64,000 nt of DNA. Origin: Cladosporium halotolerans. Lineage: Eukaryota. Location of the stretch: NCBI RefSeq assembly GCF_011745625.1, contig NW_027191471.1, forward strand, positions 372,001 to 436,000, read 5' to 3'. Below are positions 33,621 to 45,481 of the stretch, in pieces. Made by a program: the position numbers and the translations under genes. The notes under the pieces were generated by a model. It searched no databases, was not told the DNA's origin, and saw nothing but the letters and a program-made list of their open reading frames with translations. The stretch's first letter is position 1. The number at the start of each line of letters is the position of its first letter.

Positions 33621-34902
33621 GATGGGGACTGCCTCGTCACCCAGAAAATACAAGAAGACATCCGTGCTCATCCTCGGCTGGGCGGAAGGAAGCGATGACA
33701 CAGGGACTGCTGAAGAGGTGAGATCCGCGCCCTTGACTGTGTTACTTGAGGCTCGGACCGAAGAAGCTGACTCGTGCCAGCTCATACCGTTGCAAGAAGT
33801 GCTCCACGACCTCTATCATTTCTCTGTGCGCTACGAGCGCATGCACCTGCAGACGCACCCGCAGGTCCAGGCGACGAAGCACGTGGCGGAGTTCATGCTC
33901 GACGAGGACGGGCCGGGGAACTTGCTCATCGTGTACTACGCCGGACACGGCTCGGCGGAGAGGACGAGCACCGGGCGGCTGCGGCTCAGCGGTCGCTTTC
34001 CGTGCTCGGAGGAGGAGAAAGATATGAGCGTTGACTGGACGGATGTGGAGAGCACGCTTGCGAAGGCGCGGTCGGATGTTCTTGTGATTTTCGACTGCTG
34101 TCATGCAGGGCTGCTCTGCTGTCCGGCGACTCGTGGGCATCGGCGCAAGTTTCAGTATGTCGCGGCGTGCAAGGCTGACCAAAGGACGGCGAGTGCGGGT
34201 CGCAGGTCGTTTACGTCCGCGACGATCTGGGCGCTGAAGCAGTTGACAGATAGGCCTGGGTTCACGGTAACGAAGCTGGTGCAGACGCTCTTGCGGTGTG
34301 AGCATTTTCCGCTCTATCAACAAGAGGTTGTCGTCTATCCTAGCCGCTTCGGACCTGCCGAGGAAGACATCTGGCTTGCGCCGATGACAGAGAGACGCAG
34401 TGACGGTCAAGATGCACCAGACACTAACCTTTCGAGCGACGAAAGGACCGATAACTTACCGACGGCGGATATTCTGGATTTACGCTTGCACTTCTCCGAC
34501 CATGCGACGGCTGCTCACATCGAAGACACAGCCCAGGCGCTGCGAAATTTCCTCGAGACTTCTCAAGATCTCCATTTCCATCGCGTCTCGTTCTTGGATC
34601 ACACATCGTACGTGCAATGGTGCGCAAGGCATTGGCTCGGACAGACGCGCAGGGCAAGATCAACAAGTGAGGGCATGGCGCGTGCACAAGCGGCTTCCGA
34701 CCTCATTGGTACCTCAGCCGCAGACAAGGATGGTGGCCAACAGACGGATTTTTCATCCAAAAGCGATGCGGCTGTCGCGAAGGATTCTGGCATTGCTGCA
34801 ATATTTCATCATGTCGGCATGGCGCTTGGCCTTTGCTTCGGCACCTTGCAGCCGGTGCCCGCGTGGCATTCAACGGCGTTCGTGGTGACAAGGGTGGTTT
34901 GA
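33621..34902 (+). CDS. Caspase-like (clan CD, peptidase C14-like) cysteine protease; intron 33718..33780; 5' end uncertain
   Basis: YKKTSVLILGW beta-1 strand; LLIVYYAGHG (His at 33946) and VLVIFDCCHAG (Cys at about 34096) dyad; downstream AAC and SFT motifs. Confidence 0.8.
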
Positions 34903-36123
34903 TGTGGAGTCTCGAATGATCTTTCCGTAGAGGTGGATTATTGTCTAGAGTAGAGCTGGGGTTGCGAAAAGGTGCAGATGACGTTCGCCGTCGGAGGCTA
35001 TTCCGACAAATTTGAAGGCGACGACGAGCTGATGGCCGGTATAATGAAACAGAGGGCGGTTGATCAGTATGTGAAGTGATGTGCCTAGCCTCCCGCCATT
35101 CCAGCCCTAAAGTTTCCGTGTACATAGATAGGCAGGTGGAGACTTTCAGCCCGCGGCCCGTGCGTCGGCAACCGTGGATGGACGTCGCATGTCAGACTAG
35201 CTGCATAGCTTATTGCACACCTTATGCAAGCAGCACGTTCACTCCCCTGTGTGAGAGCACGCGAGGGCAGGGCTACCGTGAGCCCCGTACTAGCATCTCG
35301 TTACTCTGGCATGCGAGCCCTATCCCCCAAACATCCTCAGAGCCTCCCTCCCACTATTCCCGACACCAACACCGGCGCCCGCCAGAGTCATATTTTTAGG
35401 GCGGCTTCAATCTCTCGCTACGCCCGCCCTAAGCCCGAAGCAGCGCGAAGGATCGCAGGGGCGAGCGCGGGTTGGCTGGGGCCTGTCCGCGCAGATGGCA
35501 GCTGAGGTTTAGGCCGGTTGGCTGCCTGCACCTCACGCCTTCGCTTCGCCCTCGACTCCACACCCTCGCACCAACACCGCCGCCCGCAGCCTGCGCTCCC
35601 AGACACCAGGCACACCTCCGGCGCCGTATGCGGTGGCGCCGCTACACTTCTGCGACGTTGTGGACGCGCGCGCCTCGCGGCCGCGGCCAGCTGACGGCGG
35701 TGGCAGATGGCGCTGGTCTCGCGACACCCCATCAGGCCACCGTCCGCGCCCTCTCCCTCTGCGCCTGCAGGGTGTGTTGCTGCTTGCAGCCTCAGCTGGC
35801 GTCTGGCCCCCACAAGACTAGCAACTAGGTAGTAGACATCAACCTTACTCACCGGTGGCGCGGCGCGCTGAAAGATGCATGTCGCCCACGCACTCCTTCC
35901 GCTGGTCGGCCGTCTTACTCACGCCCTTTTCTGCCTAGTCCTCTTGATCCTTCTCGTGCTCCAGTGACCTGTTCCTCTTTCTTCACAAACTGTCTTACGC
36001 TTTCCTGCATCCCTCCTCCAACAGTCCTAGAAGAAAGAATTACACTGAGACAGAAAACATCCACCACCCTATATCTCACCCCGTGACCTGCCTCCCACCC
36101 TGACCTGACCACAACCCACCACC

Positions 36124-37471
36124 ATGTCGTTCCTCGGCGACGAAGAATGGGCCTACCGCCCCCGCCGCCCCTCAGCCCGCCACCAGCACGCCGTCAGCGG
36201 CTACCACCTGGACCCCAACGCCCACTACCGCCGCGAACCCTCCGGCAGCCTGCAACGCACGCGCTCGACCGGCCACTCGCCAGCGCCCATCGTGAACGTC
36301 TACAACGACGTCTACCAAGACGCCAATCTGCGCGCGGACTCGCACTCGCCACCCGTCATCCCCATCCCGCCCTACAACCACACGCCCGACTTCCGCGGCC
36401 GCCGCCTCGGCGACCAGCTGGCCGACGAGCTGGCCGAGATGCGCCTGGAGCGGCGCATGCGGTCGCGCAGCCGCGGGCGCAGCGATGCGAGCTCGAGCTC
36501 CGGCCGCGGCGGCCGGAGCGACTACTACCGGCACGAGATGGACCGGCTGGAGCGCGAGAAGCGCGAGATCGAGCAGCGCGAGGCGTGGAAGAAGGAGGAG
36601 GCGCGGATCAAAGCCGACATTGAAATCAAGCGGTTGAAAGACGAGGCGAAGCGGGCCGAGAACGATGCGGCGCAGGCAGCGGAGAAGAAGCGCGTGATCG
36701 AGGAGTATGAGCGCAAGCAGCGGGAGGCGAAGGAGAAAGCGAAGGAGGAGGAGCTAAGGATCATTGAGAAGATGGAGCGCGATAAGCGCGAGGCGAAGGA
36801 GGAGGAGAAGAGGCTTATGGAGAAGATCGAGCGGGAGAAGCGCGAGGAGAAGGAGCGCGAGGAGCGCGAGTGGGCGGAGTTCGAGCGAAAGCGGAAAGAG
36901 AAGCAGGAGAAAGAGGAGCGCGAGAAGAAGGAGGCGCAGGAGAAACTCGACGAAGCGATGCGCAAACGGCTTGCCGAGAAAGGTTTCACGCATTCGCAGA
37001 TCGAAGCCATTATGGACAAGGAGAAGGCGGCCAACAAATCCACTACAAAAATCACCACAACGACGACAACGACCTCCCGTGCTCTGGCGCCACTCAACTC
37101 CCACGTCCCCGTCTACGCCAAAATCCACGTCAACTACCTCTCCACCGAAACTCTGCGCTACTACGACATCCCCTGGGAATACGACCGCGTAAGCCCATCC
37201 ACTTTCCAACTCCATCCTTTTGCCACCTCACTAATTCGCATAACAGAACGACCCCTCCTACATCATCATCCTGCGCGAGATGAGCAAGCACGAGACGAAC
37301 GTGCTCTTCGACCACACGAAAGCGCTGCGCGCCGGCCGCCTGCTGCTCGACGCGCCTAGCGAGAAGAAGCCCGAGTACGCGTGGTACCGCAAGCGCGACC
37401 GCAGCAAGAGCCGCGTGCGCGACGGCGGCGGCGAGTGGAAGAAGTTTGGCATTTTGGAGATCAAGCGGTGA
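36124..37471 (+). CDS. Conserved fungal coiled-coil protein (DUF8035-like C-terminal motif); intron at about 37189..37247
   Basis: E/K/R coiled coil, then PVYAKIHVNYLSTETLRYYDIPWEYD|...YIIILREM...LFDHTK; strong codon bias. Confidence 0.75.
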
Positions 37472-38038
37472 TTGTCGGATGCTGAGCGTTGTTGGGCATT
37501 TACTTTCTTATTTCTGACTGCTGGAAATCTGGTCTCATTTAACAAGCAGTGCAGGGAATCATGCGGCTAGATTTGGATTGCGAAGGATTCATTTTGTTCT
37601 CATAACCTTCGCAGAAGGCACATCCGATACGAGAGCTAAACCAAGCGTTGCTCAGTGTTTTTCTGATGACTTGGGATGCCGGCTGATAGCAAAACCTGAT
37701 AAGTTGCCTGATCGAACATTTGCCACTTTCGAATCAAGAACTCAACCACTCCCAAACGTTCTCGACTTTACTACGTATACAATGCTTTGGTAGCCTGCGG
37801 CGGTGGTGATCGACAATGCACAAGAGCGTGTGACTCTACTATCGTTGAAGCACTGCTGTGTCTCCGTGTGATAAAGCACGGGGCTACTTCCACCATGGTC
37901 ATCCGACTTTTTGTTTCTCGATCAGGCCAAGACTCAGCAGTTACAACGGTTAGGGTGAATGTCGGAGCTGCCGGATCTTCGAGAGGCCATGTTTTCCCTG
38001 CCTGGATCGTCTCATCTGCAGCGATGTACCGAAGGGCT

Positions 38039-40456
38039 TCATTTCCTCTGCCCCGGAGGTTGCCGTTTCTGCTCAGCATTGTCCGCTCGATGACGGTGTG
38101 TTCTCTGCGACTCCCAGAGAAGCTGAGCTACTTCGGTATCACTTCTATCGAGCGCGTACTCCAAGGGAGAAATACCATCATGAGTATCGCGATTAACGTC
38201 TGCGCCGCCATCGAGGAGTTCACGAATAGTTGCTAACATCTTTTTCCCGCGGAGTCTACCGCCAACCGCACCGTACCTGAGCGCTTCAAGCAGTGGGTTC
38301 ATGTGCGGGCCGGCGTCCGATCCATTTGGGTCGGCACCGTAATCCAGCAAAAGTCGCACGATCGAGGGCTGAAGGTGTTGGGCAGCGAACGTCACTGCAG
38401 GCGTGTAGTTCGAGTTTATACCCTGCATGTGTGGAGACGTTCCGTGCCTCAGAAGTAGCTCCACCGTTTGTAGACTGCCGACGTCGATGGCGAAAAACAT
38501 AGCTTCTCTACCACGGGTAACGGCGCTCGCACCATGTGATAACAGGGTTTCTACTGTCTTTGGTGAATTTGAATCGACAGCTCGTTCGAGGAGGCTACCA
38601 TGAAATCCTTCGAACTCAGTATTAAGATCGAGCTTGGTCTGGAGAAGGCCCAACCCCTCTTCATTCGCACCTGAAAATCCTCTGTCGCGCGGGTCTGGTG
38701 CTGAATTAGCTTCCAGGACCGCTTCTAGGAGCGTATGGCACCGATAATTGCAAAGCAAGTAAACTAGGGAAATGGGGTGATCGCGAAGAAGAGGCGGCCG
38801 TTCTAATCCGAGTACCATAATCCAGTGAAGGACCACCCAAGAAGATAGGGGAAACCCAATCAGACATTCTGTGGTCGGCAATCCGCCGTGTTGTGACTGC
38901 TCAAGATGGTGGAACATGCACACCACTGAATACATTAACAGCGGGAAGTTTCTCTCCAAATCTAGGCATATTTCATGACGGCGCGCGTTGTGAAGGTCAG
39001 GATCGGAGGACTGTGCTTCCTCGAAAGCAAGTCTCTCCGCCTCCGCTTGATATGATCGATAAGTCGCGCCGTCAAGATCCACATACGTCTGGCACCATTG
39101 AGCTAGCTGCAGGTGGCCGTGCCTTGGGTGGGCTCTGGCCGGGCACGAAGTAATGCTCGCCAGACCGCCTGCGAGAAGGAATTCTCTGACAGACTCGTGG
39201 ACCAATTGCGCTCTGAGAAATTCGTCATAGTCATTCTTCGTAATTTCGACAAGCCCGCGAGACGATGCGAGCACGAAAGATACCATGGCATCGCGACTGA
39301 GCTCATCGGAATCCCATGCACCAGAAGCCAAATGTCCAGCCCCTGTCCGAATAGCGAAATATAGCTCTTCTGGAGTCAGTGGCCGTTCAGCATACAGCAT
39401 CCATTGCATTGTCACAACAAGAGCATCGTCTGGCGCCGCAAGCACACGGGCTATCAGTTCCTGCAATTTGATCGGCACCTCGTCCAGCGTGCGTAGTATT
39501 TCGGAAGTGCATGCTCCAGTGTCACTCTTCTTCTTCAACATGCGTACAACGAGGACAACCCAGAAAAAGACTCCGGAGCACCGTTGCTGGATTTTGCCAA
39601 TGAGCTGATCTCGAAGCGAATTGTCCCGAATCGATAGCTTGTTGCGCACGTAAGTTTCTATGTCCCGCTGATGTTCAGATTGCGCCTCAAGCTCGATGTG
39701 AACGCAGTGCTGTATAGTGATCTGCGGGTAGTATCGGCTGGCGAAGCAGAGGTAAAGTTGGATGCCTGTGGACTGAGCAATGAGCGCGAGTTCCTCGAAG
39801 TGCTCAATGGCATCTCGCATGTCGTCCTCATCGCACTCATCGAGGGCGTCGACATATATTGACAACGCTTGGTCTTTTCCGAAGCAAGAGATGGCTCCGG
39901 TCAGAAAGTTCCTCAAAGCCGCAACTGGCCATTCGCCTTGCTCGGTATTTCGTGGGACCTCGAATGAGAATTTGAGGCGCATTTCCGGAAATTGCGTGAG
40001 TATCTGTACTAACAGAGATCGATACAACCCTTCTACGGACTTCTCCAAGTCATGGCCGCGTGCGTTGAAGAAGAATGAGATGATTGAGTTGTCTCTGTGT
40101 ACTTTTCTCGCATGTTCCAGGGCGCATTTCATCATCGTGGATTTGCCTGAACCAGCTTTGCCTTTAATCCATAAGAAGCCGTGATGTTGCTCAAGATGAT
40201 CGGAGTAAGCCCAGTCCAAGTACTGCTGCTTCTCGAAAAGCCAGGAGCAGGTGCTGACATGGGCAGGGTCAATGCTGTGATAGCGAGAGTCCATCTGGTC
40301 GAACTTGAGGGCCTTGATGAAGAGCTCGACCTTGTCTTCCTGCAATTGCCTGCGTCCTCCATCATCCATGCCATGAAACTGGTTCTGGATGTACGTGTGA
40401 CCATATTGCACTCTCGCGTTGTCTTGTGCGATGGAGTGATCCCAACGCGTTGACAT
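38039..40456 (-). CDS. NLR-like STAND protein: short amyloid-like leader, NACHT NTPase, winged helix, ankyrin repeats
   Basis: Walker A GKAGSGKST, Walker B YVDALDEC, LKFDQMDSR..I..AH..TC.W pre-NACHT motif, G.FFWV.LV, and about five ankyrin repeats (LLDYGADPN, LLDGGADVN). Confidence 0.92.
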   Translation of the reverse strand: MSTRWDHSIAQDNARVQYGHTYIQNQFHGMDDGGRRQLQEDKVELFIKALKFDQMDSRYHSIDPAHVSTCSWLFEKQQYLDWAYSDHLEQHHGFLWIKGKAGSGKSTMMKCALEHARKVHRDNSIISFFFNARGHDLEKSVEGLYRSLLVQILTQFPEMRLKFSFEVPRNTEQGEWPVAALRNFLTGAISCFGKDQALSIYVDALDECDEDDMRDAIEHFEELALIAQSTGIQLYLCFASRYYPQITIQHCVHIELEAQSEHQRDIETYVRNKLSIRDNSLRDQLIGKIQQRCSGVFFWVVLVVRMLKKKSDTGACTSEILRTLDEVPIKLQELIARVLAAPDDALVVTMQWMLYAERPLTPEELYFAIRTGAGHLASGAWDSDELSRDAMVSFVLASSRGLVEITKNDYDEFLRAQLVHESVREFLLAGGLASITSCPARAHPRHGHLQLAQWCQTYVDLDGATYRSYQAEAERLAFEEAQSSDPDLHNARRHEICLDLERNFPLLMYSVVCMFHHLEQSQHGGLPTTECLIGFPLSSWVVLHWIMVLGLERPPLLRDHPISLVYLLCNYRCHTLLEAVLEANSAPDPRDRGFSGANEEGLGLLQTKLDLNTEFEGFHGSLLERAVDSNSPKTVETLLSHGASAVTRGREAMFFAIDVGSLQTVELLLRHGTSPHMQGINSNYTPAVTFAAQHLQPSIVRLLLDYGADPNGSDAGPHMNPLLEALRYGAVGGRLRGKKMLATIRELLDGGADVNRDTHDGISPLEYALDRSDTEVAQLLWESQRTHRHRADNAEQKRQPPGQRK

Positions 40457-40911
40457 GGTGTTTTGCCTATGCGAGATCTGAGCCGTCCGTCCGCGTATGA
40501 TCTGACTGAGCCTAATCAGCGTAACCCCTCACCTTTCTGTGTGTTAGCGAGTTCGAAACGTTGTGCTGCTCAATTCGCGCTTGCAACACTCGCAGCCCAG
40601 GACAATGCGGCCTTCAAGGTCATCCGCGATGCATTTGAAAAGTTGTGATGAAGATCAGGCTGAAGTGCGAATCTAACAACCCGATCTCAGGGTGCCGCTA
40701 ATGCACAGTCGCTTGCCGCCAGCTCACGCTGAAACTCCTCATGCGAGGCTGAGCTATATATAAACCGAATCCACTGGGCAATGCTGACATGCTATAGCAA
40801 CAAAAACCGCTACTGGAGTTTCTTCGTCACTAATCTTCCAAGTTTCACATATCCGTCTTATAATCCCCTGTATCACAGCGCAAATTTAGTGTCCCTTTAT
40901 CTATTACCGTC

Positions 40912-43125
40912 ATGGCAGCAAGCGTGGTGCAAAACGGGAGCACTCACGAAGTACTGGAGCTTTCATCGTCTGATTTGATGGAACACATCGATACGAGTGC
41001 GCAACATATAGAGCAGCAGTCCGACAAAGAGATCCCAAGCTCTGTATTTGAGACCAAAAATGCGAATGCTGGACACCGCTACCACAGTAACGTTGTCGAA
41101 GGCAATGGCAGAGCTCATTTCGGCAACGTCTATACGCAAACTGTCAACTACTACGTGACCCCGTCAGGCAATCGGTCATTCCAAACATGTGCGGTCGCAA
41201 CTACACTTCTGCTTGACCAGGCCGAGCTCACCGGCCAGAAGCGAAAGCATATCGAAGACGCAAACGCATTTGAGCCGCGGAAACTACCAAAAGAGTCTCT
41301 CGATACGGCGTTGAGCAAACTGCAGAAGCTGTCTCTCTACATGGAGACTCCCATGCAAGATTTACCGGCCCGCAAGATCACTCGTCGAATTGCCACAGTC
41401 ATTGACGCGTTGAAGTCATCCGGTTTCGCGCGATCAGCGAGACAACACACTGATTACCAGTGGAGTGATTTGAGAGAACGTCTTCTCCTCGGCAGAAGGC
41501 TGAGGATCAACTCCCCACCTCCGGTTGTTAATTGTGGGAACTTCGCTGTCGTCCAGCGCAGACGCGATGTCCTGAGATATGCTCGGTGGGAAATCACCCT
41601 GACAACTACGGAAACGAGCGTTCCCGACGAGGAAGGCCATGAGACAACGCAGTCTATGTCGGTCTTGCGTCTTGAACCATGTTGCAACCATACAGGCTCT
41701 CCTTTAGTGGCCTTCTTCGGGTGTCAGACGGATCTCTTGCGCACAAATATGATACACCCGGTGGTCCTTGCTTACCGGACAGTTCCAGGGGACTCGGAGG
41801 TGTTCAGTGTGATTGAGGAAGATGACCTTGAAGGCCTATTGAAGCTAATGGCTACGCAAAAAGTTACGGTCAGAGACTGTGACGAGAAAGGCCGGTCTCT
41901 GCTCTCGGTACGTACAAAACAACGGTGGATTTCTTGATGCTGACTCTTGTAGTATGCGTCCTACTATGGAAGCCCAACATGCTGCAAATATCTTTCCGAA
42001 AGTGGCGTCGATGTCGATAGGCTTGAGGCCTCTTTCTTCTTCCGGTACGTACAGCTTACAATGTGTGATAAGACCTTCCCCGGAGAGAGTCACACAGTCT
42101 AATGGTCATGAAGTGGGACGGAGCCAGCGTTGGGAGTAGCAAGTTCAGATGAAGCAGACGTGACCAGAGAGCAGTATACAAGAATGATGCAATGCAAGAT
42201 AAGCTTGCTGGAAGCTGGCGCGGATCCAACAATTGACTACGTAAAGGACGACGGCTCATTATACTCGGCCCAGGGCATCAGGGACGCATTATCCTGCAGT
42301 GACATCGATCGGAGTTCTACAGTCAGTTTACACTGTCCAACCATCGCGTGAGGAACTAACTCCGTTTAGGAAGCATTGAACATGCTGTTCAAGCATGGCA
42401 GATCCTTTATCGATCTAAGCAGTTTACGCATTGACGGCTTGAGCATCTGGCTTCGTTCATGCAACGATGCAATGTTCTTGAAAACCCCACGAGTCCTGGA
42501 ATACTTGATCAAAGCAGGCTGCGACATAGAGGAGGTCGACAACAATGGCTGGAATTGTTTGTTCCACTGCGTGCTTAATGCACACGGACCTAACACGTCG
42601 AAGTCCTTCGAAGCACTTCTGTACCTGCTTAGCGTATTTTCAAAGATCGACGCGCAGGATCGATACAAGAAATCCATCTATGACAGGGTGAGCCGTGCAG
42701 ATGATGAACATGGAAGCTATCAACGGGATCTATGGTATCATGGTCTTGAACGGTCAGGAATATGCACTCACGGAAGCTTGCACTCTCGACTTAGCGCTTC
42801 TCGGTACACCCTGGATTACACGCCACAGCACCATCGTGCAATGCGCTACCTGGATACTTGGACTTTCTCCGAGTACTTCGGCAACACAGACACGACAGAA
42901 ATAGACGCCATGTATCCAATGACTGAGTACGAGGCTGCCGAGACTGCTCGTCTTGCCCGGTTGCGAGAACAGATTGAGAGCGAAGAACAACTTCGAGAAG
43001 ACGAGACTGAGGAAAGCGAAGATGATATGTTTGAAGGCAGCGAAGATGAATGGAATGATAGCGGCTGTGACGACGACGGTGACGACGACTACGATGACGA
43101 CGAAGCTGCTGATGATCATTTGTAG
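40912..43125 (+). CDS. Ankyrin-repeat protein with N-terminal HET-s-like motif; join(40912..41907,41953..42044,42114..42320,42370..43125)
   Basis: Ankyrin units (DEKGRSLLS|YA, LLEAGADP, LIKAGCDIEEVDNNGWNCLF); three canonical introns preserve the frame; acidic tail. Confidence 0.8.
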
Positions 43126-43227
43126 TCGGACAAATGGCACTCTGAAGACCTGATCAGACGAAACAAACAAATGAGCATGACCAAGCGAGAAACGACGGAA
43201 TGTCTATCAAACATCTTTACGCACGAA

Positions 43228-44798
43228 TCAAACCTTCTTCCAATCCCAACATCTTCTAACCATCGCCCTCCTCCCAGCCCTCCGACTCTTCAAGCTCACC
43301 GTCTCTTCGACAACACCACCATCACCCTCTCCCTCTCCCTCCGCCTTCATCCGCTCGCCCTCCCTCACTTCCCCAATCTTCCATCCCCTCAGAAAAAGCA
43401 GGCACACCGCCGCCGCGACATACATGAAGCCCGCGAACAGCTGCGCACCCAGATACTCGCCCGTCCCTCCCACGATCTCCAGCGCAATCGGCTCCGAGAA
43501 AGTACACGGCAGCACGATGACGAGCCAGATCAGATTCAACGCGCTCGGCACACCGCGCAGACCAACGACTTCAGCGGACACTGGCGCAATGGTGGCCCAG
43601 AACGTGCCCGCGACCGCGCCGCCGACGAGCGAGTAGAAAATCAGCACGCCATAGGAGCGCGAGAAGGTCCAGATGAGCAGCGCGAAGAGGCCGGAGAGGA
43701 ACGTCATGAGAGCAGCCATGTTGATTCTGCCAATCGCATCGGAGAAGTAGCCGATGGGTGGGCGGCCGAAGGCCTGGCCGAGGTTGAAGAGGGCGCTGAT
43801 GATGGCTGCTTGCGAGGCGGAGAGGCCGATGGAGTTGGCATAGTTGGCGAGGGAGAAGATCAACACCACGTAGGCCAGGATGCTAAACCAGCCGTAGCCG
43901 CATAGGAGGAGGTATTCGGGCCGGGAGAAGAGCTGGTGGTCGAAAGCGAGCTGCGAGGAGCCGATGGCTTTGTTGCGGTCGCGGAGGAGGAGGGCGCAGA
44001 TTGTATTGACGACGCATGCGAGGATTCCGAGCACGCGGAAGGCCCAGGCTAGCCCAATGGTCTGTATCATGGCGCCGGTCGCGAGGGAGTAGATGAGTCC
44101 ACCTAGACCGGAGCCAGATGTCGCGAAGCCGTTTGCGAGCGAGCGACGGGTCGTGAACCATTGTGGAACGATGCCGACGCTACCAACGAAGAGAAATCCC
44201 ATGCCGAAACCGAAGCAGATACCTTGGGAAAGAAAGAGTTGCCAGATCTCGTATGCGAATGAAGCACCGATGAGGCTTGCTGTCTCGAGAACGATACCAA
44301 TGAATAAAGTCGTGCGGGTGCCGTAGACACGAGTGGTATATGTTGCAATTGGCGAGACGAGCATAGCACAGGAGATGGAGAGAGACCCGACGAATGCGTA
44401 CTCGAGGTATGAGGCGCCAGGGAAGGTCTCTGTGGCAAGGTAGTGTGCGAGAAAGACACCATAACTGCTGTTCATACCCCAAGTATGAGCGTTTATCGTC
44501 GCACAGCAGGCGGTACACACCCACCCGTAACCACTGTACATGATGATTAGAAAGTCCCACAAGACGATTTTCTCTCAATCAGCACTTACCCATTTGGAGG
44601 TGGAGGCGGTCCAGTCGGCGCAGCTGGTGTCTCTGGGTCCTTCTCGTTTAATAACCTTGGAGGGTCTCCAGATTCTCCATTGGCTTTCAAACCAGATTTC
44701 TTTTCCAGACCATCTTTGGCATCCGGTGTTCCTGCGCTGGTAGACGCTTGCTCTACCTCCCCATCGTCGTCCTCCTTCCACGCCTTTTTCTCACTCAT
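43228..44798 (-). CDS. MFS monocarboxylate-permease-like (Mch family) transporter; one intron at about 44535..44589
   Basis: PPPNG|GYGWVC, WGMNSSYGVF, QWFTTRRSLANG and SDAIGRIN; 12-TM hydrophobicity pattern. Confidence 0.88.
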
Positions 44799-45481
44799 AA
44801 CTTCCCCGTCTCGCCTTCAGGTATCAGATGTCGATCAGTTTTGACCGCTAAGAGACTCCCTTGGGCCTCCCAGTCACCACAATCAAGAGCGCTCGCCACA
44901 AGCAACGGCTCCAGCCAAACTATCAGACGACGAGTAGCAAACACACACTCAGAGTCAACATGTGGAGCTCATGATCAAATTCAGGTGACTGCCGCGTCGA
45001 GGGGCGCGGACAGGGAATATCGCGATGGTATATCTTGCCCCCATCTTCGGATAGATGACTCCTTACCTAATAACCGCAAACTGCAAGCGTAACGCATTCA
45101 GGGCTTCAAGCGATCAGCGACGCGGGCAGACCAAGGACGAAGCGAGAGAAACGTGCCGAGAGCCGCGCTGCGATCTCGGCAAGTGCGGGGCAAACTACAC
45201 AGCTGCAGCTGAAGTAAACAAACGGGAGCTGGAGGCGGGATTAAATCGATACTTCTGAATATCATCGTTTAGAAAAGACTGCTGAGGGTCGTAATAAGGG
45301 TGCTAACAGTAGGTCGTGAAGCGAGGAGAGTAATTTGACAATACTACCGCTGGGTTACTCCTCGCTTTTCTGCTAGAAAAAGAAACACACAATTGAAAAC
45401 AGTCGCTTTGCTTTACCCATCCGATGGCTATTACCCATTGCCCATGTGGGCGACACACCTGGTCCCTGCTTGACCAGTGGT

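Follow-up and report, generated by a model that had tools for sequence, protein, structure and literature searches.

We analysed a stretch of 64,000 nucleotides from Cladosporium halotolerans (assembly GCF_011745625.1, contig NW_027191471.1, positions 372,001 to 436,000, forward strand), hereafter called the window, to which all coordinates refer. It contains two divergent genes, one on the minus strand encoding a nucleotide-binding oligomerisation domain (NOD)-like receptor (NLR), and one on the plus strand, here called the partner gene, encoding an ankyrin protein. They lie head to head, with start codons 455 bp apart (40457-40911), and each encodes near the N-terminus of its product a single 20-residue motif that resembles amyloid motifs related to HET-s (HRAMs). 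The original prediction had described such a divergent pair, separated by 455 bp and with one 20-mer in each gene. The coordinates of the open reading frames (ORFs) bear out this distance, both 20-mers are found exactly where they had been placed (40391-40450 in the NLR gene, 41074-41133 in the partner gene), and the pair is real and expressed, both genes being present in spliced RNA contigs.

Expression and splicing were assessed with the contigs of four public sequencing runs, aligned to positions 36000-45000 of the window. For run X16 the RNA label in the record is only a guess, and we treated the run as RNA since its contigs lack six introns: the three of the partner gene, one in the 5' untranslated region (5'UTR) of the NLR gene (40467-40532), and two in flanking genes (37189-37246 and 44534-44589). 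All six introns are spliced out, and the contigs therefore represent spliced RNA, of a strain 95-99% identical to the window. Both genes of the pair are transcribed. On the NLR side the X16 contigs extend to 40623, and on the partner side they do not begin before 40815, so that the two transcription units are separated by at most 191 bp (40624-40814) within the shared divergent promoter region (40457-40911). A DNA contig of run X2, which carries the label of another organism, covers 36872-45000 with 38 differences from the window.

The NLR coding sequence (38039-40456, minus strand) is a single coding exon of 805 codons, defined by the ORF, by Pfam and by X16 contig record 1. Its product begins with MSTRWDHSIAQDNARVQYGHTY and carries the amyloid-like motif TRWDHSIAQDNARVQYGHTY at residues 3-22 (40391-40450). 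A NACHT domain of the NPHP3_N type follows at residues 69-241 (39734-40252; Pfam, 101 bits, cut-off 24.8), with the Walker A sequence GKAGSGKS, and then ankyrin repeats, of which the best-scoring stretch is at residues 624-713 (38318-38587; Pfam Ank_2, Ank_4 and Ank), including an Ank_2 match with E 4e-14 at residues 624-712. A P-loop NACHT domain followed by superstructure-forming repeats identifies this gene as an NLR, a member of the STAND (signal transduction ATPases with numerous domains) NTPases. Because the NPHP3_N match begins at residue 69, the leader is about 68 residues long, instead of the 35 or so first proposed, and the motif lies at its very start. The 5'UTR contains a 66-nt intron (40467-40532, minus strand) with GTGAGG..GCATAG ends, seen as the joint 40465->40532 in X16 contig record 1 (cut shifted by +1). 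An upstream coding exon was considered and ruled out: the spliced mRNA has a stop codon seven codons 5' of the ATG, with no in-frame ATG. Among 26 NLR homologues, the motif glycine G19 is invariant (26/26), A14 and R15 are conserved in at least 90%, and G99, G102, G104, K105 and S106 of the Walker A region are invariant. The closest named relatives are from Cladosporium, and the cluster of one 96%-identical protein contains a C. halotolerans entry. The NLR gene is covered by many contig pieces of 88-99% identity in runs X8 (76 pieces) and X18 (54 pieces), and in both runs the matching contigs end at the same site from both directions (40050/40052 and 40083). A possible cause of these breaks at 40050-40083 is that several alleles or paralogues exist, with a boundary of recombination in the N-terminal part of the NACHT domain.

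The partner gene consists of four exons on the plus strand. Exon 1 (40912-41907, residues 1-332; joint 41906->41952, cut +1) encodes a leader, the motif, a basic cluster, an alpha/beta domain and the first ankyrin cap. Exon 2 (41953-42044; X16 joints 41906->41952 and 42043->42113) and exon 3 (42114-42321; X16 joints) encode ankyrin repeats, and the intron preceding exon 3 has an unusual AAG acceptor at 42113. Exon 4 (42370-43125) encodes a degenerate ankyrin solenoid, a long helix (exon residues 186-220) and an acidic tail before the stop codon. The three introns were predicted from splice signals and reading frame, and exactly those three are removed in the X16 contigs. The spliced coding sequence has 683 codons and zero internal stops, and exon 4 is conserved in 12 relatives. 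The motif HRYHSNVVEGNGRAHFGNVY is present as a single copy at residues 55-74 (41074-41133), where it scores 25.0 bits with a motif profile hidden Markov model (HMM) made without the window sequence. It is followed by a conserved basic cluster, KRKH (41239-41250; family consensus KRKR), resembling a nuclear localisation signal, and by a central domain at about residues 125-292 (41284-41787). The leader before the motif has 53 residues (40912-41073), compared with roughly 5-35 in most relatives. Translation from the second in-frame ATG, at codon 23, would shorten the leader to a typical length, and the RNA contig is compatible with either start.

A full HMMER scan of partner exon 1 against 1.84 billion representative sequences retrieved 93 representatives at E≤1e-3, of which 57 reach E≤1e-10 and 16 reach E≤1e-30. 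The partner is a member of a conserved, unnamed ascomycete family whose proteins comprise the motif, the basic cluster, an alpha/beta domain of about 170 residues, an ankyrin solenoid and an acidic tail. Most alignments begin at query residue 50-53, that is, at the motif. In the alignment of 30 members, only two columns are invariant, the motif glycine G71 and P283, and the consensus reads GHxYSxIxxxDNxRVHxGD, a variable linker, KRKR, and a conserved domain ending in ATxRDCDExGRSLL. R111 of the basic cluster is conserved in at least 90% of these 30 sequences; in an alignment of 10, no exception is seen at R111 and K112, and conservation is at least 90% at K110 and R113. Many family entries of about 300 residues are gene models that read into intron 1. 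The full-length members P0005, P0006, P0009 and P0017 extend into ankyrin repeats and a conserved C-terminal region. Named members occur in Cladosporium fusiforme (four paralogues), Cladosporium sp. NU13, Cryphonectria parasitica and Lineolata rhizophorae. Searches with exon 1 among proteins of 582-2000 residues and with the family alignment among proteins of 1275-3640 residues gave no match, and the census of full-length architectures is based on the 93 representatives. No prior description of this family was found in a literature search of open-access papers and bioRxiv.

The structure of partner exon 1 was modelled from the family alignment with AlphaFold2 (AF2), with a mean predicted local distance difference test score (pLDDT) of 72.8 and a predicted template modelling score of 0.60. 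Residues 1-116 are mostly below pLDDT 50 except for the motif stretch, which reaches 57-68 with no secondary structure. The central domain, with block-mean pLDDT mostly of 81-93, is modelled as three helices (130-145, 153-169 and 181-193) and a sheet of five long antiparallel strands (213-287), after which the first ankyrin helices begin. It has no Pfam family in the partner or its relatives, no Foldseek match in the PDB at E≤1e-3 (best E 0.057), and a best Z of 5.6 against 48,161 chains (VIA-align wide), under the stated background of 7-8. Weak structural matches to porins, gasdermin or complement pores were dismissed, as they reflect long beta-hairpins only. In the ESM Atlas the domain matches unnamed ascomycete clusters only. 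It is thus predicted to be a new alpha/beta domain of no known fold. Exon 4 is modelled as helix pairs (mean pLDDT 79.4), and its top Foldseek matches are all ankyrin or DARPin (designed ankyrin repeat protein) chains (best E 2.4e-3, prob 1.00). As had been anticipated, the partner has no HeLo, SesB or PNP_UDP domain, either by Pfam or by fold, and no death domain, enzyme or pore-forming fold was found with Pfam, AF2, Foldseek and VIA-align. Likewise, a nucleotide-binding oligomerisation domain was not detected, there being no P-loop family by Pfam and no Walker A in the sequence.

Only the motif region aligns between the two proteins. BLASTP matches NLR residues 4-39 with partner residues 56-91, ungapped, with 9/36 identities and E 0.004, in agreement with the gap-free alignment of the two 20-mers proposed earlier. 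We built a motif profile HMM from 29 partner-family motifs, excluding the window sequence, and searched 1511 six-frame segments of the window. The NLR leader scores 19.2 bits (E 6.1e-5) and nothing else in the 64 kb is found at E 1, so the match is significant and the window holds two motif copies only, with no third. The HMM also confirms that the partner has one full repeat; a second, degenerate repeat was considered and rejected on this ground. The idea of a decoy in which the partner ankyrins would be a copy of those of the NLR was rejected as well (BLASTP, best E 2.1).

In the published definition of an HRAM, position 19 is Gly and position 15 is Arg or Lys; positions 5, 8, 10, 16 and 18 are hydrophobic, and position 3 is polar, with His in HRAM3 (PMC4518210). 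At positions 3/5/8/10/15/16/18/19, the partner motif (residues 55-74) reads H/Y/N/V/R/A/F/G and the NLR motif (residues 3-22) T/W/S/A/R/V/Y/G. Both have the glycine, which is conserved in 30/30 family sequences (G71) and 26/26 NLR homologues (G19), and both have Arg at position 15. Four of the five hydrophobic positions fit in each motif, position 8 being polar in both. Motifs of this kind are common on the receptor side: 38/120 listed NLR homologues, in addition to the window NLR, match the anchoring pattern that we used, the leader of the NLR P0188 is identical to the partner motif at 14/24 positions, and all 20 motif-bearing NLRs scanned have NPHP3_N and ankyrin domains. The two motifs thus belong to one class, as the original prediction had it, and this class is common at the N-termini of NACHT-ankyrin NLRs, as seen with the HMM and in the homologue leaders.

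The composition of the family motifs is that of the NLR-side repeats, called r0, which are reported to be depleted in D, E and K and enriched in S and H, a bias that homotypic stacking would lead one to expect (PMC4518210). In the family motifs, compared with the whole proteins, E falls to 1.0% from 5.9% and K to 0.9% from 4.2%, and H rises to 7.7% from 3.8% and S to 11.2% from 9.5%. Published r0 rows, from part of the supplementary table, also resemble family motifs, such as a Fusarium r0 with ASGSSRVHVGN compared with ASGSSRVHNGN in P0030 (PMC4518210). In a complex prediction made without controls, NLR residues 1-45 and partner residues 45-90, each in duplicate, scored 0.00, which counts neither for nor against.

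For a census of the N-termini of the partner family, we sorted the 93 representatives by the room they leave for a motif and by motif HMM detection. The motif is present in 36 (29 that trained the HMM and 7 that did not), the N-terminus is too short to judge in 51, and six have room and no motif. Two of these six (P0086 and P0090) do not belong to the family, being CUB and Ki-67-type proteins, so that genuine members with room for an N-terminal module carry the motif in 36 of 40 cases. Among the others, P0055 has an N-terminus that is not recognisable, and the remaining three have another module: a HET domain in P0003 (43.2 bits, Pfam cut-off 22.5), a SesA domain in P0082 (30.2 bits, cut-off 26.3) and a HeLo-like PigL_N N-terminus in P0092 (21.2 bits, E 2e-4, under the Pfam cut-off of 27.2). 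P0092 shares the body of the partner family, with an alignment of 350 columns that starts at the first central-domain helix and extends to the C-terminal region (hhalign prob 99.0, E 3e-18), and P0082 shares it as well (prob 98.8, E 5e-17, 219 columns). HET, SesA and HeLo-like domains and prion-forming motifs are the N-terminal modules reported for fungal NLRs (PMC4518210, PMC9815663). Since the same module types head fungal NLRs, the partner family thus shows an NLR-type modular logic, without the NOD.

A basic cluster is found 21-42 residues past the motif in 27/33 motif-bearing family members, and together with the acidic tail this sequence feature hints at a possible nuclear aspect. The SesA-fused P0082 retains the basic cluster. 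A similar cluster, often RKRKHSD, precedes the motif in 14/38 NLR homologues.

We tentatively prefer, at somewhat less than an even chance, to see the partner as an NLR-like sensor that lacks the NOD, with the motif as its output handle and any executioner encoded at an unlinked locus. The locus encodes two co-expressed proteins, each beginning with one HRAM-like motif of the NLR-side r0 type. The NLR is of the ordinary fungal type, and the partner family would consist of NLR-like sensors or switches without a nucleotide-binding domain. Their central domain and ankyrin repeats could be the regulated part and the N-terminus an output slot, taken by the motif in most members and by a HET, SesA or HeLo-like death domain in a few. 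Upon activation the partner may expose or cluster its motif and thereby seed or join an amyloid signalosome of the type formed by NLRs with the motif. The partner would then not itself be the executioner, and a separate gene elsewhere would code for the killing protein, which would bear a matching motif. The structure and expression of the genes, the class of the motif, the architecture of the family and the exchange of N-terminal modules are seen in the data; amyloid formation, the direction of signalling and cross-talk between the two proteins are what we infer here. Of the four roles first proposed for the partner, namely adaptor, decoy, second receptor or new effector, the family data favour the second receptor, because a HET, SesA or HeLo-like domain replaces the motif on the same body and because the motif has the NLR-side composition; a new effector is less favoured. 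The modelled body, which is without a catalytic or pore-forming signature, is also counted for a sensor. It had been considered that the partner could be a 5'-truncated copy of a HeLo-ankyrin gene. This is refuted by the motif-first arrangement of 36/40 members and by the RNA contig, which starts within the 455-bp spacer.

Several points weigh against the partner as a NOD-less sensor. The Pfam HRAM models PF11558 (HET-s_218-289) and PF17108 (HET-S, NLR-side) give 0 matches on the window motifs at E≤10, where the scoring of both leaders with HRAM models had been proposed as a check, and 0/20 on motif-bearing NLRs. In the 30 family sequences, PF17108 is sub-threshold in 6 (best E 0.005) and PF11558 in 1 (E 0.17). 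The HRAM-like identity of the motifs thus stands as regards the published pattern (G19, R15 and four of five core positions) and finds no echo in the Pfam models. Wojciechowski et al. 2022 (PMC9815663) state that profile HMMs have low sensitivity when motifs are as short as these. In addition, the receptor-like view rests on an analogy of architectures, a death domain is present in only 3 of the 40 members with one of the three Pfam matches under the cut-off, and nucleation by the motif would need oligomerisation of the central domain, a putative property. A nuclear function that has nothing to do with NLR-like sensing could also be indicated by the basic cluster and the acidic tail. Finally, an NLR and its target are classically recognised as a head-to-head pair with a common motif, which favours a partner acting downstream of the NLR.

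A more far-reaching form of the sensor proposal is that the partner family is a second ascomycete class of NOD-less NLR-like sensors. Its switch would be the alpha/beta domain with the ankyrin solenoid, and its outputs would be those of true NLRs: an HRAM-type handle, HET, SesA or HeLo-like. Head to head with an NLR, as here, it might form a two-sensor amyloid signalosome that leads to an unlinked executioner or, via the basic cluster and acidic tail, to a nuclear response. We regard this extension as possible and rather doubtful.

The alternative that survives best is a linear pathway like that of NWD2/HET-S with a new target, in which the NLR would template the partner motif and the polymerised partner would be the effector or adaptor. 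It could then recruit clients via the ankyrin solenoid or act in the nucleus via the basic cluster and acidic tail. The arrangement of the locus agrees with this, with a divergent pair 455 bp apart, both genes expressed, and no motif copies in the 64 kb beyond these two. Of the 155 effector genes in the published HeLo set, 98 adjoin their motif-bearing NLR (PMC4518210), and single-repeat effectors exist, as in HRAM3/NLR12 with PNP_UDP (PMC9815663). Moreover, the 2022 survey covered only the C-terminal 100 residues of the neighbours of NLRs, so an N-terminal target would have been missed (PMC9815663). However, the occurrence of HET, SesA or HeLo-like domains at the motif position on the same body is hard to square with that body being an effector, and the composition of the motif is r0-like, unlike that of effector-side r1/r2 repeats.

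The lack of conservation of the pairing in distant relatives also speaks against a linear pathway. We scanned JGI metagenome contigs with a 10-sequence family alignment and obtained 10 related loci, with 22-35% identity over exon 1. All eight loci that include the 5' part carry the motif at the family gene's own N-terminus (E 1.6e-10 to 2.4e-3). None of the 10 has a NACHT homologue near the family gene (tblastn with the window NLR, E≤1e-5), including L002, L004 and L006 with about 10 kb upstream, and none has a second motif copy (best other HMM match E 0.039). The 22 long ORFs of seven loci include no NLR, HeLo, HET or PNP_UDP protein; they encode permeases, kinases, a copper monooxygenase, a tRNA ligase, topoisomerase II and the like. 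The adjacency, whose conservation was an expectation of the original prediction, is thus absent in these distant relatives. Neither was the expected co-variation of the two motifs seen. With five identities, the partner motif ranks 17th of 34 family motifs for identity to the NLR motif, and among 39 NLR leaders compared with the partner motif, that of the window NLR comes 23rd. Concerted evolution of motifs is described as typical for NWD2/HET-S-type pairs (PMC4518210); from these mid-list ranks, the pair therefore shows no concerted evolution and no pair-specific matching. Taken with the module swapping, this leads us to consider the linear pathway unlikely.

The surroundings of the distant loci recur. 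In L001, L006 and L009 the family gene stands between a cytosine/purine permease gene and a convergent protein kinase gene, and in L002, L003 and L004 it follows a DOMON/copper monooxygenase gene and precedes a gene for an FSH1 hydrolase (L003, L004) or a tRNA ligase (L002). This stable housekeeping synteny of distant family members contrasts with the birth-and-death pattern usual for NLR genes.

Still less likely, in our opinion, is that the two genes are chance neighbours. They would then be independent carriers of a widespread N-terminal motif with their own unlinked partners, and their head-to-head position would be functionally meaningless. The lack of adjacency in the relatives examined fits this idea, as do pair motifs no more alike than random combinations of family and NLR motifs. 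By locus tags, the family paralogues Q7P37_000645, Q7P37_001749, Q7P37_007278 and Q7P37_007503 of C. fusiforme are not adjacent to the NLR homologue Q7P37_005967, and in Cladosporium sp. NU13 the family gene g03061 is not adjacent to the NLR homologue g07405; this comparison covers one named NLR homologue per genome. However, that two carriers of one rare motif class share a promoter region of at most 455 bp would be an unlikely coincidence. It is quite improbable, lastly, that the motif is a linear peptide conserved for some other function, for instance as a degron or binding site, and fits the loose HRAM pattern by accident, as the failure of the Pfam HRAM models, the polar position 8 in both window motifs and the structureless motif region (AF2, pLDDT 57-68) could suggest, since its glycine is invariant and Arg15 conserved, its alternating pattern, single copy at NLR N-termini and r0-like composition match published HRAM r0 repeats, which it closely resembles (PMC4518210), and profile HMMs are reported to be insensitive for short motifs (PMC9815663).

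The partner as a NOD-less sensor can be compared with several known systems. The closest are NWD2/HET-S of Podospora anserina and the HRAM pairs, in which the NLR has one N-terminal 21-residue motif with G19, R15 and alternating hydrophobic residues (Daskalov et al. 2015, PMC4518210), and in which the motif-bearing gene adjoins that of the NLR (PMC4518210). In contrast to HET-S, the partner has one repeat and not two, at its N-terminus (residues 55-74 of 683) and not at its C-terminus. It is also without HeLo, HeLL, SesA, SesB or PNP_UDP domains, the motifs of the pair are not co-adapted, and the Pfam HRAM models are blind to them. HRAM3/'NLR12' with PNP_UDP (Wojciechowski et al. 2022, PMC9815663) offers an example of a single-copy motif on the non-NLR side, of His at position 3, as in the partner and the family consensus (GHxY...), and of carriers that are often unlinked, with N-terminal receptor-side copies outnumbering effector-side ones. 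Unlike there, the carrier here is not a PNP_UDP enzyme and its motif is N-terminal. Fungal NLRs likewise interchange N-terminal modules on a constant body ending in ankyrin repeats (Dyrka et al. 2014, PMC4986451; PMC9815663). The partner family differs from them in having no NACHT, NB-ARC or Walker A and an alpha/beta domain of about 170 residues in the position of the NOD. In plants, head-to-head sensor/helper NLR pairs are two receptor-type genes that diverge from a short common promoter. This is an analogy only, as one member of the present pair is NOD-less and the proposed link would be an amyloid motif, not heterodimerisation of NLR domains. Animal RHIM (RIP homotypic interaction motif)-type amyloid adaptors carry a short amyloid motif on proteins that are neither NLR nor executioner, with a different motif family (PMC7889193).

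Amyloid signalling in fungi is known as a two-part scheme, in which an NLR carries the motif N-terminally and a killer protein carries it C-terminally. In its passage on fungal motifs, a 2021 review describes them as limited to these two places, NLR N-termini and execution-protein C-termini (PMC7889193). A family that carries the motif, or HET, SesA or HeLo-like domains, before a non-NOD body would widen the receptor side of this pathway, and may account for the excess of 'orphan' N-terminal motifs reported in the 2022 survey (PMC9815663). Should the partner turn out to be a target, no earlier effector or adaptor would have had its motif at the N-terminus. The locus is in any case a compact and testable system: its two leaders are short, a single promoter is involved, and the oligomerisation of the new domain can be assayed.

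No gene for a HeLo, HET, PNP_UDP, SesB or patatin protein was found among 21 long ORFs of the window. About 3 kb beyond the 3' end of the NLR gene, with one gene between, a 426-residue ORF (33622-34902, plus strand) has a weak caspase-type match (Peptidase_C14, 22.4 bits, cut-off 21.4); Raptor_N scores 23.5 bits, under its cut-off, and the ORF has no motif copy. The protein encoded by the gene convergent with that of the NLR (36124-37359, plus strand) is very rich in K/E, resembles a coiled coil and matches no Pfam family. An X16 contig confirms the intron of this gene (37189-37246) and continues into the NLR gene, which means that the 3' ends of the two genes abut or overlap.

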